From contig OX597829.1 of the NCBI GenBank assembly GCA_951406725.2, positions 21,390,001 to 21,454,000 of the forward strand: a stretch of DNA of 64,000 nucleotides, written 5' to 3'. Shown here one piece after another: positions 16,301 to 22,300 of this stretch. Every line of letters starts with the position of its first letter. Position 1 is the stretch's first letter. Source of the DNA: Octopus vulgaris. Taxonomy: Eukaryota. The position numbers and the translations under genes are program-made. Below the pieces are notes generated by a model. It was not told where the DNA came from and made no database searches. It saw only the letters and a list, made by a program, of their open reading frames with translations.

Positions 16301-19300
16301 AATTGTTGTTTCTAGTCTTTAATAATGTTACATCAAGAAATTTTGAGTGATAAATGATTCTTGGTTGAAAAATATTAACTGAACTAAGATGCAGGCATGG
16401 CTGTGTAATAAGATGCTTGCTTCTCATCCACATGGCTCCAGGTTCAGTCCCACTGTATGACACCTTGGGCAAGTGTCTTCTATCATAGCTTCATGCTTGT
16501 GGGTGAATTTGGTAGATAAAATCTGCAAGAAGTCCATTGCACATGCACGCATGTGTGTGTATGTGTTTGACCCATCACCACCATTTGACAACCAGTGCTG
16601 GTGTGTTTACATCCCTGTAACTTGGAAGTTCAGCAAAAGAGACTGATAGAATAAGTACCAGGTATTAAAAAAATGAAAAAAATAAGTACAGGGGTCGATT
16701 CCTTTGACTAAAAGTTCTTGAAAGTAGTACCCCAGCATGGCTGCAGTCTAATGATTGAAACAAGTAAAAGATAAAAGATAAGAAGTTTATTATGTTAGTA
16801 TTACTTAATTTAGTGTAAGCTTGTCATTGATCACATATGAATTAGATAGATATTAGGGTTATGCAGATAGTATCTTTTACTTTAGTATATATTTCATTTT
16901 ATTATAACTAGCAGTATCGCCCGGCGTTGCTCGGGTTTGTAAGGGAAGTAACTATATAAGCATATAGTTATAGCCAAAAAATAGCAAAAAAATGCATTAA
17001 AAATGGAAAAAAAATTATGGTAATTTTTTTTTTTAAATCGTTGACTCATCGTAGACATTTTTAGAGAGTTACTTCCCTTATATAATAGCGAAAGAATGCA
17101 TTAAAATGGAAAAAAATGATGGTAAATTATTTTTTAAATCGTAGACTCATCGTAGATGTGCGCTAATACCCAGAAGGGCTCGATATGAATCACGACTATA
17201 AGATACCCGGTTTTGGTTAAACTGCAAAATGTGGGAGTAGTTAGGAATCTAAATCGTAGGAGACAGACACACAACTTCACTTTTATATATAAAGATATGT
17301 ATCATAAAAATGTTCTAAGAATATTTGATATATGATTATCTATTGGAAAATGAAAATTTATATTATCATATTTGTAGCATTCTTTTATCAGCATGTAGCT
17401 TTAGGTAGCAGAATTGTTAGCACACTGGACAGAATACATTGTGACATTTCTTCCAGCTTTATGTTCTGAGTTCATATTCTACCGAGATCAGTTTTGCCTT
17501 TTGTCATTTCGGGGTCAATAAAATAAGTACCAGTTAAACATTGGGGTTGATGTAATCAACTTTTCCCTTCCCCCAGATTGCAGACCTTGTGCCTCTAAAT
17601 GAAAGGGTTATTGATATGTAGCTGTGTGTGTTTGTGTGTGGCCAATATCTGCACATTGTATCTATCTGCATGGTCTGTGATATCATTGTTATGCTAATCC
17701 CCATCATCATCATCATCATCATCATCATGATAATGTTGTTGCATGTGTTTTGCATGCTTACATGTGTTCATTTTACATGATAACCAGTTCAAACATATGA
17801 GTAAGTTTCGTGGCATGCAGTTTGAAAGACATTGATGAAAGTGTTCTTCAACCTGGATTGAAAATTGTTTGAAGATTTTAAAGTGTACTGCCAGAAAAAA
17901 AGAAATGAATCTAAAACAAAAGTAAGAGGAACCAGCTAATGATTTTCCACTACAGTTAAATTAACAAGCTTCTTTATATAAATTCCTTACAATCATAAAT
18001 GGCCCTGAAGTAGAGCTTACAAAATTGGTTTTCATTAATGGAATCAAGTGTGCTCAGAGAAAAATTTTAATTTTTAATCATCTATGATTATAGGCGCAGG
18101 AGTGGCTGTGTGGTAAGTAGCTTGCTTACCAACCACATGGTTCCGGGTTCAATCCCACTGCATGGCACCTTCTACTATAGCCTCGGGCCAACCAAAGCCT
18201 TGTGAGTGGATTTGGTAGACAGAAACTGAAAGAAGCCCATCATATAAATGTATATGTATATATATATATATATGTGTGTGTGTGTTTGTGTGTCTGTGTT
18301 TGTCCCCCCAACATCGCTTGACAGCCAATGCTGGTGTGTTTACTTTCCCGTAACTTAGCGGCTCAGCAAAAGACACCGATAGAATAAGTACTTGGCTTAC
18401 AAAGAATAAATCCTGGGGTCAATTTGTTCGACTGAAAGCAGTGCTCCAGCATAGCCACAGTCAAATGACTGAAACAAGTAAAAGAGTAAAGAGTATGAAC
18501 TTAACCTAATGCCTCTATCCCAGATCTAGTTTTTCTTGTTGTAGTGGTCCAGTCAGCTAGAGACTTTTGCTCTTGGATCAATAATAGTACAGCTAAGTTC
18601 TAATATAGATGTATTTTACCACTAGCAAGGATTCTTGTCAAAGAAAAGTCTTGTAAACAGCAAATAACTGAGCAAATTACAAATTGCAAGTATTTGGAGA
18701 ACATCACATGCTTTTTAAGTCTAGCACGACATTGTAGGAAGAGATGCTTTTTTTATTGCAGTAAATTGCTCAATTTCAGCTAATTCTGATGGTCATGACT
18801 AAAATATTCTGTCAAGACTGTCCATTACATTAATGTTAAAAGTATGACTCCTAAGTAGAACACAACTTTGAGTATTAGTTGTGCGACAAACAATAAATTT
18901 GCATTGAGTTAGCAATTTTATATTGATGCAGTATACTCCTTTCTTCTTTTACTGGTAACAAAGTTATCCTGAATCACCGTATCAGCTAGTAGAGATAAAA
19001 AATATATTGTGTGCTTTCCATCTGTAGGGAGCCTACAAACTCTGATGTATTAAATAACCAACAGAGTTCTAATTTTATCACAGACTTTCTCAAACAAATA
19101 ATGTATAGACTGAATTCTATTTAATGTTTGCAATAAAAAAATTTTGATGGAACATGCAGGAGTGGCTATGTGGTAAGTAGCTTGCTAACCAGCTTGCTTC
19201 CGGTTACCCATAGTGCATTTGGTTTGTCATTTGTGTGCGAGTCGGACGTTTTTCCTTTTGCTGCTTTGAGGTTAGTAATGTACTTGGACCTTAGTGGGTC

Positions 19301-22300
19301 TGAGCTGTCTTCTTCAGAGGAGGAGCTGCTGAGAGCAGTAGAAGGCATGGATGAATATTTGAAGAAAACGAAGAGTTTCACCGAGGCTGTGGAGGTGAAG
19401 AGAAAAGAGGTGGATTCATCAAGAATGAAGGAGCATGGACAAATGGTGCAGAAAGTGGGCGGCAACATGACGTTGTCACCCCCACAAAGAATAATGGATG
19501 GCATAAAAAGAAGAACGGTCATATACAAAGTTTACTCGATAAAGAGTATGAAGGTCGACCTAATAGAAATAGAGAAAATAGAAAAGGCAGTAAAGGAGGA
19601 ATCCAACAGAGTAATATACATGTCAAGAGGATGCCAATATGGGACAATGGTAGTCCAGTTTAGAACAAAGGAGGAGGCAAGGAGGCTGGCGGGTAAAACC
19701 GTAAAGATGAAGGAAATGGTCCTTCTACCCACGTATCTTGGAAGAAGGACTTCCAAGTGAAGTTGTGTGTCTGTCTCCTACGATTTAGATTCCTAACTAT
19801 TTGTAGAAGGAATTCCGCCTGACATAAATGTGGCTTGGATAGCGGCAGCTGTCCTTATTGGAAGCGAGGAGAAGGTGGCTGTCCTCCAAGCCACAGAAAC
19901 TGAAGGAGGGTGGAAAGGAAGGACGCTCAAGTTAATTATTCAGACGGAGGAGGGACAACTCGAGAACATGGCAGAGACTGTGACGCTGGGGGAAATCGTG
20001 CTGAGGGTGTGGGTAGAGGGCAGAGTACCACGTTGTTTTAAATGTGACCAAAAGGGCCACATTAGAGCATACTGCCCTCTACGAAGGACTACGGCTGAGG
20101 ATATAGTTGCGGAGACAGAAGAGAAAAGAGAGGAAGACAAAATAGACGAAGGAAACGATAAAAAAGAGGAAGAATGGAAAATTGCAGAGCGCAATAGGAG
20201 AAAGAGGAAAAAAAGAAAAGACACTGAGTATGATGTGGCACCCCAGTCCAACCCCATCCCACCCAAGACCACTCAGACCCACCCACCCCATTTCCCCTCA
20301 AGAAAAAAAGAAAAAGAAAGAACAGACACCACAAAATTTAGAAGACCCCCCCACCTCCCGGTGAAAAAGGTTATGAATGCATAACGGAGAGAATGTTATC
20401 ATTAAGTGACAGTGAAAAGGGAAAAAGGATTGGATGAAAAGAGAAAAAGGACTCAGGACCCAGAGACAGCGAGTTGTGTTACTCAGTGTGGGGTGAGTAG
20501 CACACTCTTCATAATATCATTTTCAGATATCATTCATATTACCATATTTTAATTTGTTCTTTATGTGCATTTTCATGTTCATTCATTATATCATATTTTA
20601 TTTTTTAATTGTTATATGTCCCCACATGTGTTGTAGTGTCCCCTCTGTGTATTGCCTTTATGGCAAATTTAATAAAATAAAGTAGCTTGCTTACCAACCA
20701 CATGGTTCCGGGTTCAAGTCCCACTGTGTGGCACCTTGGGCAAGTATCTTCTGCTATAGCCCCAGGCTGACCAAAGCCTTGTGAGTGGATTTGGTAGGCA
20801 GAAACTGAAAGAAGCTTGTTGTATATATGTATATGTAAATATATTTATGTGTGTTTGTGTGTCTGTATGTGTCCCCCCAACATTGCCTGACAACCGATGC
20901 TGGTGTGTTTACGCCGATAGAATAAATCCTGGGGTCGATTTGCTCAACTGAAGTTGGTGCTCCAGCATGGCCACAGTCAAATGACTGAAACAAGTAAATG
21001 AGTAAAAGAGAGAACAGAACGTCTTATTGATTATGCTAAATACTCAACGTGCAGCCTTTTAATGTGAAAAGTTTCCTTCACCTTAAGTATTATATTTTTC
21101 TTTTCTTATTATTATTTTTTTTTTTTATTTAAGGCACCGAAGTGTAGGTATAAGAAAAACTGCATCATATTACATAACAGTTATTGCAAAAAAAATTGGT
21201 CACCGACGATTATTAAGTGGTGTTAAAGATTTGACAGATAAAATTCTACAAGCCACACTCGACTGCTTAACTGATCCATCCAACGAAGTACGGTAAGTTT
21301 TAGAAAGAAGAGATTAAATAAATATATTCCTTGCTTATAGTACTCATAAAAAATTATGCAGTTTAGTTTTGTTTCCTTTAAGTTATTCTTAACCTTTCTG
21401 CCTCAAATATTGCTCCATTTTCTTCATTTGTTTCTTTTCTATCTTTGTTTTTTTTTTTTCTTGCTTAGTTATTATTTTCACCTCAAGCTTTGCTTATGTT
21501 TCCTCTCGAATTTCTTTCTGTGGTTTTGCAGTATTTCTTCTTTCCCGTCCCATTGACCAATGGCTTCTTGTAATAGTTGGCACTGTCTTCACCTTCTTCA
21601 TTTTCTACAGTTGAGCTATCTCATATTTAAGAAGGTTGAATGTATTTATTTTTTTCTTTTACCTTCTTGATTACTTGGGGTGTTATGGGGACATGCAACA
21701 TCAATTATAGAGCACATATGGTTCACCTTGTCCACCACCATGAGCTCCAGCTTGTGCTCAATTATTGTTATTATTACCACTGCCTTAGCGAAGATGGAGG
21801 TATTGTTTTCAGTTGTGTTTGTTTGATTGTTTGTTTGTCCATGAACAGGATATCTCAAGAACTGCTGGATGGATTTGGATTAAACTTTCAGGGATGTTTG
21901 GCCTCATGACTGGCATAAGCTGTTTAGATTTTGGTATTGATCCAGTGCTGGACAAGGATTTTGGATTATTTTCCTGGTTTTTTTTTTACCTAATTTTTGA
22001 GAGCAGTCGAGTTCATTTTTAGTATTTGTGTTTGTGAGAGCAGTCAAATTTATTTCAGATATTCCCATATCAAAAATCATCTCTGGCTAATCGTTGAGAG
22101 GACCTTGGTGTTGCCTTGGCAGAGGTTTGCGCTCTCTTAGTGCTCTTATTATTATTTTCATTAGCATCTTCTTTCAATTTAGCTTCCATTTCTTGCCAAG
22201 TGTCTTCCTGACACCTAGGGCAGAGAAATGTACTGTATACATTGGTAAGCCATTAAAACAAACACATCAGATTGTTCATTTACAGAGTCGTGTGACAGAG

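Follow-up and report, generated by a model that had tools for sequence, protein, structure and literature searches.

The 64-kb stretch of Octopus vulgaris DNA analysed here (the window) contains a retroposon that is quite probably a broken copy of an octopus family of ORF1-only, non-autonomous LINEs. Its one gene is predicted to encode an RNA-binding protein, and the endonuclease and reverse transcriptase (RT) would come from a full-size LINE, with L1-Tx1 as the likeliest source. Borrowing of a LINE enzyme is likely because the element encodes no copying enzyme and its diverged copies are apparently built alike. The earlier note had proposed an independent, non-autonomous invertebrate family that supplies its own RNA chaperone and borrows RT. 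An ORF1-only, non-autonomous non-LTR family that is multi-copy and invertebrate is supported by the contigs, the predicted fold of the protein and its Octopus relatives.

The insert and its target site

The target of the insertion, which the earlier note had not recognised, was the head of a SINE, now split by the insert:

19192-20679 (+), retroposon insert, 1488 bp, between 17-bp TSDs
19175-19191 (+), left TSD, 17 bp
20680-20696 (+), right TSD, 17 bp, pairing with the left one with 1 mismatch
19156-19191 (+), 5' part of the host SINE head (the target; contains the left TSD), matching the SINE copy at 18096-18131 with 94%
20697-21012 (+), remainder of the host SINE, 72-79% identical to several further SINE copies of the window

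The TSDs were found by self-BLAST comparison of the window, with a control in which 100 shuffles of both flanks gave at most 11 bp (mean 8.5). When the insert was excised in silico, the SINE head was restored and resembled uninterrupted copies elsewhere in the window. This match to an empty site, the single TSD mismatch and the shuffles bear out the 1488-bp insert between 17-bp duplications described before. The SINE head, which we take to be tRNA-like from its box A/B-like motifs, was not recognised as a tRNA by ARAGORN or Rfam. Heads of this type make up 2.5% of the window, and one insertion site of the retroposon is known; in the sequencing runs, SINE contigs masked the flanks of other copies. 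Both the TSD and the A-rich 3' end of this copy are marks of target-primed insertion, and self-BLAST of the window revealed no terminal repeats of the retroposon.

The ORF and its predicted protein

The insert has a single ORF of the type I ORF1 kind:

19278-20384 (+), ORF in one frame with two mid-ORF in-frame stops; stop codon at 20382-20384
19503-19733 (+), first RRM-like domain, about residues 76-152; AlphaFold pLDDT 87-95 over residues 71-150
19797-20015 (+), second RRM-like (ferredoxin-like) domain; model pLDDT 86.8
20034-20075 (+), single CX2CX4HX4C zinc knuckle, read directly from the motif; Pfam zf-CCHC E 0.0046

Without a 45-nt patch described below the product would have about 355 aa, and homology runs across the break in the ORF, both to protein P0001 and in the alignment of the family. 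The zf-CCHC match scored 17.4 bits, under the cutoff of 20.8, and at E <= 0.5 Pfam gave two zinc-finger families for the window protein and nothing else. For the first domain the VIA search (best Z 8.6, rmsd 3.1, 79 aligned) returned mostly RRM domains. The second domain, which adjoins the knuckle, has the RRM topology, but its fold match is not RRM-specific: RRM and ACT folds were tied in VIA (best Z 7.1, rmsd 5.5, 80 aligned), Foldseek gave no match at E <= 0.001 and human L1 ORF1p matched it at E 0.48 only. The model of the whole protein was closest to tandem RRMs (E 8.6e-4). Thus, of the earlier description of one ORF of ~354 aa with an RRM-like region and a knuckle, the ORF and the knuckle stand, while the number of RRM-like domains changes to two predicted instead of one.

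Type I ORF1s are described as carrying a CCHC knuckle directly preceded by one or more RRMs (PMC4120745; PMC5203782), and the window protein, as modelled, fits this type by its RRM-like domains and its CCHC. By analogy it may act as a chaperone. For the assignment to L1-Tx1 no supporting sequence match to a known Tx1 ORF1 was found, nor any such family among the Pfam families listed. Neither endonuclease nor RT is encoded in the insert, as had been claimed: there is no ORF2 and no open stretch >55 aa in any of the 6 frames between the ORF and the insert end.

The knuckle also matches retroviral nucleocapsids in a PDB sequence search, as would be expected if the element had kept only the gag of an LTR, DIRS or endogenous viral element. 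However, these matches are limited to the knuckle and a basic tail, the predicted fold is RRM-like and not capsid-like, and no retroviral capsid appeared among the 50 viral-library matches listed. The lack of terminal repeats and the presence of a 17-bp TSD with an A-rich end, which fit target-primed insertion, also speak against a gag origin, and we regard it as highly improbable.

The 5' leader and the 3' region

The ORF is flanked by two further regions within the insert:

19192-19277 (+), 5' leader, T-rich, 86 nt; candidate internal promoter
20385-20679 (+), 3' region, 295 nt, purine-rich to about 20500 and T-rich after, by composition
20644-20679 (+), terminal about 35 nt, a candidate recognition tail, with a 5-bp hairpin (20652-20666) and AATAAA (20671-20676)

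The length of 86 nt previously given for the leader was confirmed. One diverged contig aligns from 19191 onwards, with the 10 letters ahead of that point unmatched. Folding of the leader was not found to be better than that of its shuffles. In the 3' region, the purine-rich stretch is possibly still coding in intact copies; an extra C-terminal domain present in some relatives was looked for in three frames of 20280-20679 and not found. The hairpin noted before is indeed present, though its stability is at chance level (z -0.78; 37/200 shuffles fold equally well).

The terminal stretch from 20644 was matched by 25 (X1) and 20 (X11) contigs in which the upstream sequence was unlike and heterogeneous (agreement about 0.5). 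A 23-nt tail pattern gave 0 matches among metagenome contigs, and no autonomous partner sharing the 3' tail was retrieved from metagenome, viral or prokaryote contigs.

Other copies in sequencing runs

Contigs from 4 of the 24 listed runs were surveyed, and the results below refer to the pieces, loose ends and joints listed (32 of about 87,700, 24 of 1228 and 15 of 125, respectively), most of which are SINE and Helitron contigs. Every bin inside the element was covered in all four runs, by pieces diverging from the window copy by under 1% to about 18%, indicating that the element is not single-copy. The summed contig depth inside the element was at least 4x (X1) and 16x (X5) that of one unique-flank bin, a ratio that is not a copy number. 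Three of the 32 pieces, 11-14% diverged, bridge the ORF stop, four bridge the passage from the purine-rich stretch to the T-rich tail, and one, 11% diverged, reaches the hairpin. Two of the bridging pieces have unaligned ends, with 132 letters after 20604 (record 16) and 218 letters before 20457 (record 24). In three runs, overlapping pieces 11-15% diverged together connect the ORF end with the hairpin by way of the same 3' region. This path is assembled from overlapping pieces, no contig spanning a whole copy, and TSDs are known for the window copy alone.

The retroposon has only one copy in the 64-kb window, as would be expected if a LINE had undergone a single internal deletion or truncation here and nowhere else. 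But the diverged pieces follow the same path from the ORF end to the short tail in three runs and therefore form a family, which largely refutes this origin; we give it almost no weight.

More serious, if still unlikely, is a parent that is a full two-ORF LINE, in which the hairpin and AATAAA would be an internal signal after ORF1 and short copies would recur by premature polyadenylation, with no independent ORF1-only master. The AATAAA end with almost no poly(A) would fit such a parent, as would the fact that whole copies are not covered by any contig and that the loose ends known are 24 of 1228. Furthermore, L1-Tx1 LINEs averaging about 5.4 kb (2,288,644 bp in 421 insertions) have recently been active in O. 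vulgaris (PMC13282606). Against it, contigs that differ upstream have the last 35 nt alone in common, as a shared 3' terminus would lead one to expect, and these 35 nt are preceded by about 180 nt of T-rich non-coding sequence. In addition, no entry into ORF2 or any other coding sequence was seen among the pieces and joints listed, and the copies continuing into ORF2 that the earlier note had named as counter-evidence did not appear among the bridging contigs listed; a minority of them would escape this survey because few pieces, loose ends and joints are listed and most belong to SINEs or Helitrons. An ORF1-only family is thus the reading that we prefer.

Damage in the window copy

The copy in the window is dead because its ORF is broken by a patch, for which a possible donor lies upstream:

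19758-19802 (+), 45-nt patch bringing two in-frame stops; inverted copy of a Helitron-like 5' end
16908-17295 (-), non-autonomous Helitron-like element, 388 bp, possible patch donor, separate from the retroposon; TC start, subterminal hairpin, CTAG end, A|T site

Positions 19755-19799 are 100% identical to 17282-17238 (minus strand). We presume the candidate donor to be a Helitron from hallmarks that we take as typical of that group. At the patch site other copies have six other letters that keep the frame, and the patch-free joint from 19757 to 19803 was found in 4/4 runs (3, 3, 2 and 1 contigs; three organism labels), so that among the contigs listed the patch is private to the window copy. 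This copy also carries CpG-type mutations. It had been called nearly intact and probably recent; it is indeed 2-3% from the nearest long pieces, but its ORF is disrupted and the copy is decaying.

Protein relatives in Octopus

Of the 150 clusters (at 50% identity) that were listed, 106 match the core of the protein; their median pairwise identity is 30%, most are fragments, and on sequence comparison the encoded protein belongs to a deep radiation. The other 44 representative hits were dropped as knuckle-only or low-scoring, and the 13 of them checked against Pfam were generic RRM/CCHC proteins, knuckle proteins or without family. All the relatives with a species name (12/21 looked up) come from Octopus, and the protein word-index searches returned only Octopus-named or unnamed proteins. 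One intact knuckle was found in 29 of 61 members and two in none. No ZCCHC3-type, DUF4283 or Transposase_22 family was present among the 25 of 49 Pfam families listed for these 61, and an Atlas lead to ZCCHC3 RBD plus CCHC (0.90, rank 6) was at the edge of chance. None of the 27 hits scanned carried an RT or endonuclease family, a weak argument since ORF2 would form a protein of its own. With the C-terminal half as protein query, nothing was found in viral or prokaryote contigs, and 5 metagenome loci were dropped as matching the knuckle only.

Some of the relatives, several in number, have long ORFs and are annotated as host genes; two examples, P0008 from O. vulgaris and P0152 from O. sinensis, share 93% identity. 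This would suit processed retrocopies of an octopus host gene family, for example a domesticated ORF1 (ZCCHC3- or L1TD1-like) passively mobilised as ordinary mRNAs, and the layout of leader, ORF, UTR, AATAAA and TSD is compatible with it. Yet the number and low identity of the clusters, their fragmentary state and the many subfamilies with a common terminal motif argue against such a gene family. Moreover, gene models join the relatives to unrelated Helitron, SNF2 and C2H2 genes, a pattern typical of scattered repeats. Host-gene retrocopies therefore seem improbable, somewhat more so than the two-ORF parent.

Comparison with known elements

The earlier note presented the element as an undescribed system, which does not hold in that form, since ORF1-only LINE derivatives are already a recognised class that, according to PMC5786205, includes the invertebrate HeT-A and Ag-Sponge beside HAL1. 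As summarised in PMC5753468, HAL1 is non-autonomous, encodes ORF1p only and arose several times from L1. The window element shares with it the ORF1p-only coding, the lack of autonomy, the TSD and the A-rich end. It differs in host (Octopus versus mammals) and in its type I ORF1, with two predicted RRM-like domains and one CCHC, not the Transposase_22 type (coiled coil, one RRM, CTD) that PMC5203782 gives as dominant in mammalian L1 and that HAL1 presumably carries from its L1 origin. The window family is therefore not HAL1 in the strict sense, as neither ORF1 type nor host matches.

HeT-A (Drosophila, Jockey-derived) and Ag-Sponge (mosquito, CR1-derived) are described as bipartite, non-autonomous LINEs of the ORF1-present kind, and their protein has been proposed to form multimers with proteins of the partner (PMC5786205). 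Jockey-lineage ORF1s are also reported as type I (PMC4120745). Jockey ORF1s carry three knuckles where the window family has one. Like HeT-A and Ag-Sponge, the window family is ORF1-only, non-autonomous and from an invertebrate. HeT-A is telomeric and has a long 3' UTR, both absent in the window element.

Tx1 ORF1s are given as type I variants (PMC5203782), and many Tx1 families are reported to target repeats or small-RNA genes and to pass this preference on to their passengers (PMC4494074). The window copy lies in a SINE head and has a type I ORF1 like theirs, but it has no RT by which to be classified, its sequence matches no known Tx1 ORF1 and one insertion site is known. SINEU, mobilised by Tx1-clade LINEs, encodes no protein, unlike the window element. 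In O. vulgaris there are 80 L1-Tx1 families, 13 of them recently active (PMC13282606). The words HAL1, ORF1 and non-autonomous had 0 occurrences in the text of that study and one supplement, and titles and abstract openings in the literature revealed no ORF1-only family from octopus or molluscs. The strategy is thus known from HAL1, HeT-A and Ag-Sponge, and the animal group is probably new.

Possible mechanism and significance

Mobilisation would occur in trans, likely by L1-Tx1. The 5' leader of an intact copy would drive its transcription, and the RNA would be translated into a protein with two RRMs (predicted fold) and a CCHC, the ORF being open at the patch site in other copies. As suggested by other type I ORF1s, the protein may coat, in cis, the RNA that encodes it. 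The conserved terminal 35 nt and the A-rich end would then recruit the partner's ORF2 in trans, and target-primed reverse transcription would generate the 17-bp duplication seen here. The window copy landed in the SINE head and presumably acquired its templated 45-nt patch and CpG-type mutations later.

A bolder and rather doubtful extension is that the whole octopus radiation of this ORF1 type (>100 lineages at <50% identity) is a long-lived, self-diversifying clade of ORF1-only half-LINEs without a cognate two-ORF parent, sharing one 35-nt terminal signal, riding a common ORF2 in trans, perhaps preferring SINE heads as a safe place to insert, and at present wrongly annotated as host genes.

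If the preferred reading of an ORF1-only family is true, a mollusc joins the short list of hosts of ORF1-only LINE parasites, probably through an origin of its own and with a type I ORF1 that has one knuckle, and keeping ORF1 in cis while borrowing ORF2 would gain support as a general strategy. With intact members in a deep radiation, one could test directly what a non-autonomous element gains from ORF1, and whether release from ORF2 speeds up the evolution of ORF1. Repeat surveys based on RT are blind to ORF1-only elements, and several Octopus gene models annotated as 'uncharacterized' or CCHC-type are probably copies of this family.

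Structure of the element and its insertion site

The element is an insertion product of 1488 bp (19192-20679), lying between 17-bp repeats with one mismatch that were recovered by comparing the sequence with itself; in 100 tries with shuffled flanks the longest repeat was 11 bp, versus the 17 bp observed. The insert, its target site duplications (TSDs), the 86-nt leader, the single ORF, the hairpin and the AATAAA end were all described in the earlier note and were found again here:

first 86 nt of the insert, 5' of 19278: leader
19278-20384: ORF, in one frame with two internal stops
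295 nt after the ORF: 3' sequence, with a longest open stretch of at most 55 aa in six frames
20652-20666: terminal hairpin of 5 bp; AATAAA ends the element

The stability of the hairpin was not above chance, 37 of 200 shuffles folding equally well. In the 3' region, two imperfect tandem copies of a T-rich unit of ~48 nt can be made out by eye (20515-20625), a repeat not reported by Tandem Repeats Finder.

The insert splits a SINE head into the halves that flank it. We take this head to be tRNA-like from its box A and B motifs; neither ARAGORN nor Rfam detected a tRNA in it. Without the insert, the site resembles the uninterrupted SINE copies at 18085, 6260, 41551, 32079 and 9399, and the 16 matches to the SINE head make up 2.5% of the window. 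This SINE family has more than 10 copies in the 64 kb, with a head identity of 70-86%. The start of the insert (19191-19198) repeats 8 nt of the target (19179-19186), which could reflect a templated 5' junction or a true 5' end a few bases inward. Elsewhere in the window, ~1.2 kb (52400-53600) are almost pure TA repeat.

Other copies in public sequencing runs

Of the 24 public runs listed, 20 (four organism labels, ten studies) each contain 11-41% of the element's words. Four runs (labels A, A, B and D) were compared with the element at 80% likeness, and in all four every bin inside it was covered. Summed depth was at least 4 times (run X1) and at least 16 times (run X5) that of a single unique-flank bin, a ratio that is not a copy number. 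The element therein exists as multiple diverged copies. The stop codon was bridged by three of the 32 pieces listed out of about 87,700 (records 16, 22 and 23, 11-14% diverged), the passage from the purine-rich stretch to the T-rich tail by four (records 7, 8, 16 and 24), and the hairpin was reached by one (record 8, 11% diverged). Even weighed against the extent of the listing, overlapping diverged pieces that together cover the path through the stop, the purine-rich stretch and the T-rich tail up to the hairpin make a one-off deletion of a LINE at this locus unlikely. Record 17 starts at the 5' boundary of the element, preceded by 10 unmatched letters. Unaligned letters numbered 132 in record 16 and 218 in record 24; for loose ends, 24 of 1228 rows were listed.

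The copies have a common terminus. Two runs contain contigs (25 and 20, respectively) whose match begins no earlier than 20644 and whose upstream sequence is mixed, as expected if several families end in the same 3' terminus. Short copies could also arise if transcripts of a full LINE, with both ORF1 and ORF2, were repeatedly polyadenylated early; this would agree with the lack of a whole copy in one piece and of a second TSD among the 32 listed pieces, where SINE contigs swamp both element ends, and we consider it improbable. The window copy is most likely a dead member of an octopus family of ORF1-only, LINE-derived elements.

Disruption and decay of the window copy

The ORF, called nearly intact in the earlier note, is in fact broken by a 45-nt patch with in-frame stops (19758-19802), and the copy is decaying as well as disrupted. 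Positions 19755-19799 match 17282-17238 of the opposite strand letter for letter. The latter stretch lies close to the 5' end of an element of 388 bp (16908-17295, minus strand), presumably a non-autonomous Helitron-like one, judging from its hallmarks. The matching stretch has extremely high depth in all four runs aligned, so the donor need not be this local copy. Templated repair is the likely origin of the patch. Contigs in all four runs (3, 3, 2 and 1) join 19757 to 19803, with six different letters in between in the two runs where letters are visible, and those copies are therefore open across the site.

Of 374 difference rows 40 were listed, and we picked 17 in which the window differs from a letter largely uniform among the other copies; CpG sites account for seven, and of the 13 within the ORF, 11 alter an amino acid. 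The nearest long pieces differ from the window copy by 6/256 and 14/464 letters, and one 168-nt piece by a single letter. In other copies the C-run at 20346-20354 is shortened by small deletions and the stop at 20435 (in another frame) is absent; together with the purine-rich composition up to ~20500, this suggests that coding may extend slightly beyond 20384 in intact copies, in which case the window copy may bear a second lesion. Comparison of the protein relatives gave no confirmation of longer C-terminal coding.

Encoded protein and its relatives

The first relative found, A0A0L8G4Z0 of Octopus bimaculoides, is 59% identical over the second half, in an alignment that runs directly across the patch site. 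An exhaustive search gave 189 clusters (50% identity) at E <= 0.001; of the 150 listed, 106 matched the family core beyond the knuckle, with a profile built largely from those same hits. Median pairwise identity was 30% among 54 aligned sequences. Among 21 relatives looked up, species names are given for 12, in every case Octopus (bimaculoides, sinensis and vulgaris), and the other 9 have no species name. That the entire radiation, of more than 100 lineages, lacks ORF2 seems rather doubtful.

An RNA-binding fold is predicted for the protein. The AlphaFold model, from the read-through protein and 60 relatives, has a mean pLDDT of 75.9 and shows two alpha/beta domains with the topology of an RRM, then the knuckle, then a charged tail. 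With the whole model, Foldseek placed tandem-RRM proteins at the top, U2AF65 (E 8.6e-4) being the sole match at E <= 0.001. For the first domain, VIA gave Z 8.6 and rmsd 3.1 over 79 aligned residues, in a list mostly of RRM domains; taken alone, the second domain showed no clear preference among RRM, ACT and ribosomal folds (best match with Z 7.1 and rmsd 5.5 over 80 aligned residues). Among the Pfam families listed for 61 members, knuckle families alone recur, and Atlas gave a ZCCHC3-like lead for the O. vulgaris relative P0008 at 0.90, near chance level. One or more RRMs before a CCHC knuckle define a type I ORF1, found in many LINE clades (PMC4120745 and PMC5203782), so that the ORF type does not name the parent.

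Five longer relatives (P0152 from O. sinensis, P0049, P0001, P0028 and P0025) have in common an additional domain at the C-terminus, of weak conservation (E 5e-8 to 1e-3 in single leave-one-out comparisons); no match to it could be seen in the window copy. The gene models P0025, P0075 and P0110 fuse the family ORF to Helitron/PIF1, SNF2 and C2H2 zinc-finger sequences and are probably annotation chimeras from scattered copies. Divergent lineages (the P0060 cluster, with four contigs of 1849-1930 nt, P0037, P0039 and P0030) are represented by contigs that carry long ORFs and are at most 1.7-2.2 kb in length, sizes that fit short ORF1-only units but also ordinary fragmentation.

Known counterparts and possible mobilization

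The earlier proposal of an ORF1-only family, with its diverged copies, is supported, and that of an undescribed kind of element is not: HAL1 is an L1 derivative encoding ORF1p alone (PMC5753468), and PMC5786205 places HAL1, HeT-A and Ag-Sponge together in a class of ORF1-present non-autonomous LINEs, so elements of this kind are already known, insects included. The octopus element would work like these, but differs from a strict HAL1 in ORF1 type and host. No mollusc ORF1-only family was found in the literature listings and abstract openings searched, mostly outside subscription journals and Repbase Reports, nor by term searches in the available portions of the mollusc papers PMC13282606, PMC9115989, PMC11203168 and PMC10294476. 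The family may already be in deposited repeat libraries under an L1-Tx1 or Unknown label.

Its RNA would be transcribed from the leader and bound in cis by the ORF1 protein, and the tail would recruit the ORF2 of another element. A long TSD and an A-rich end suit the L1-Tx1 group. Two facts make L1-Tx1 the likeliest partner: the ORF1s of Tx1 elements are variants of type I (PMC5203782), and 80 L1-Tx1 families, 13 of them recently active, are present in O. vulgaris (PMC13282606). Repeats or small-RNA genes are preferred targets of many Tx1 families (PMC4494074 and PMC3747384), which makes the insertion into a SINE head, though one site, of interest.
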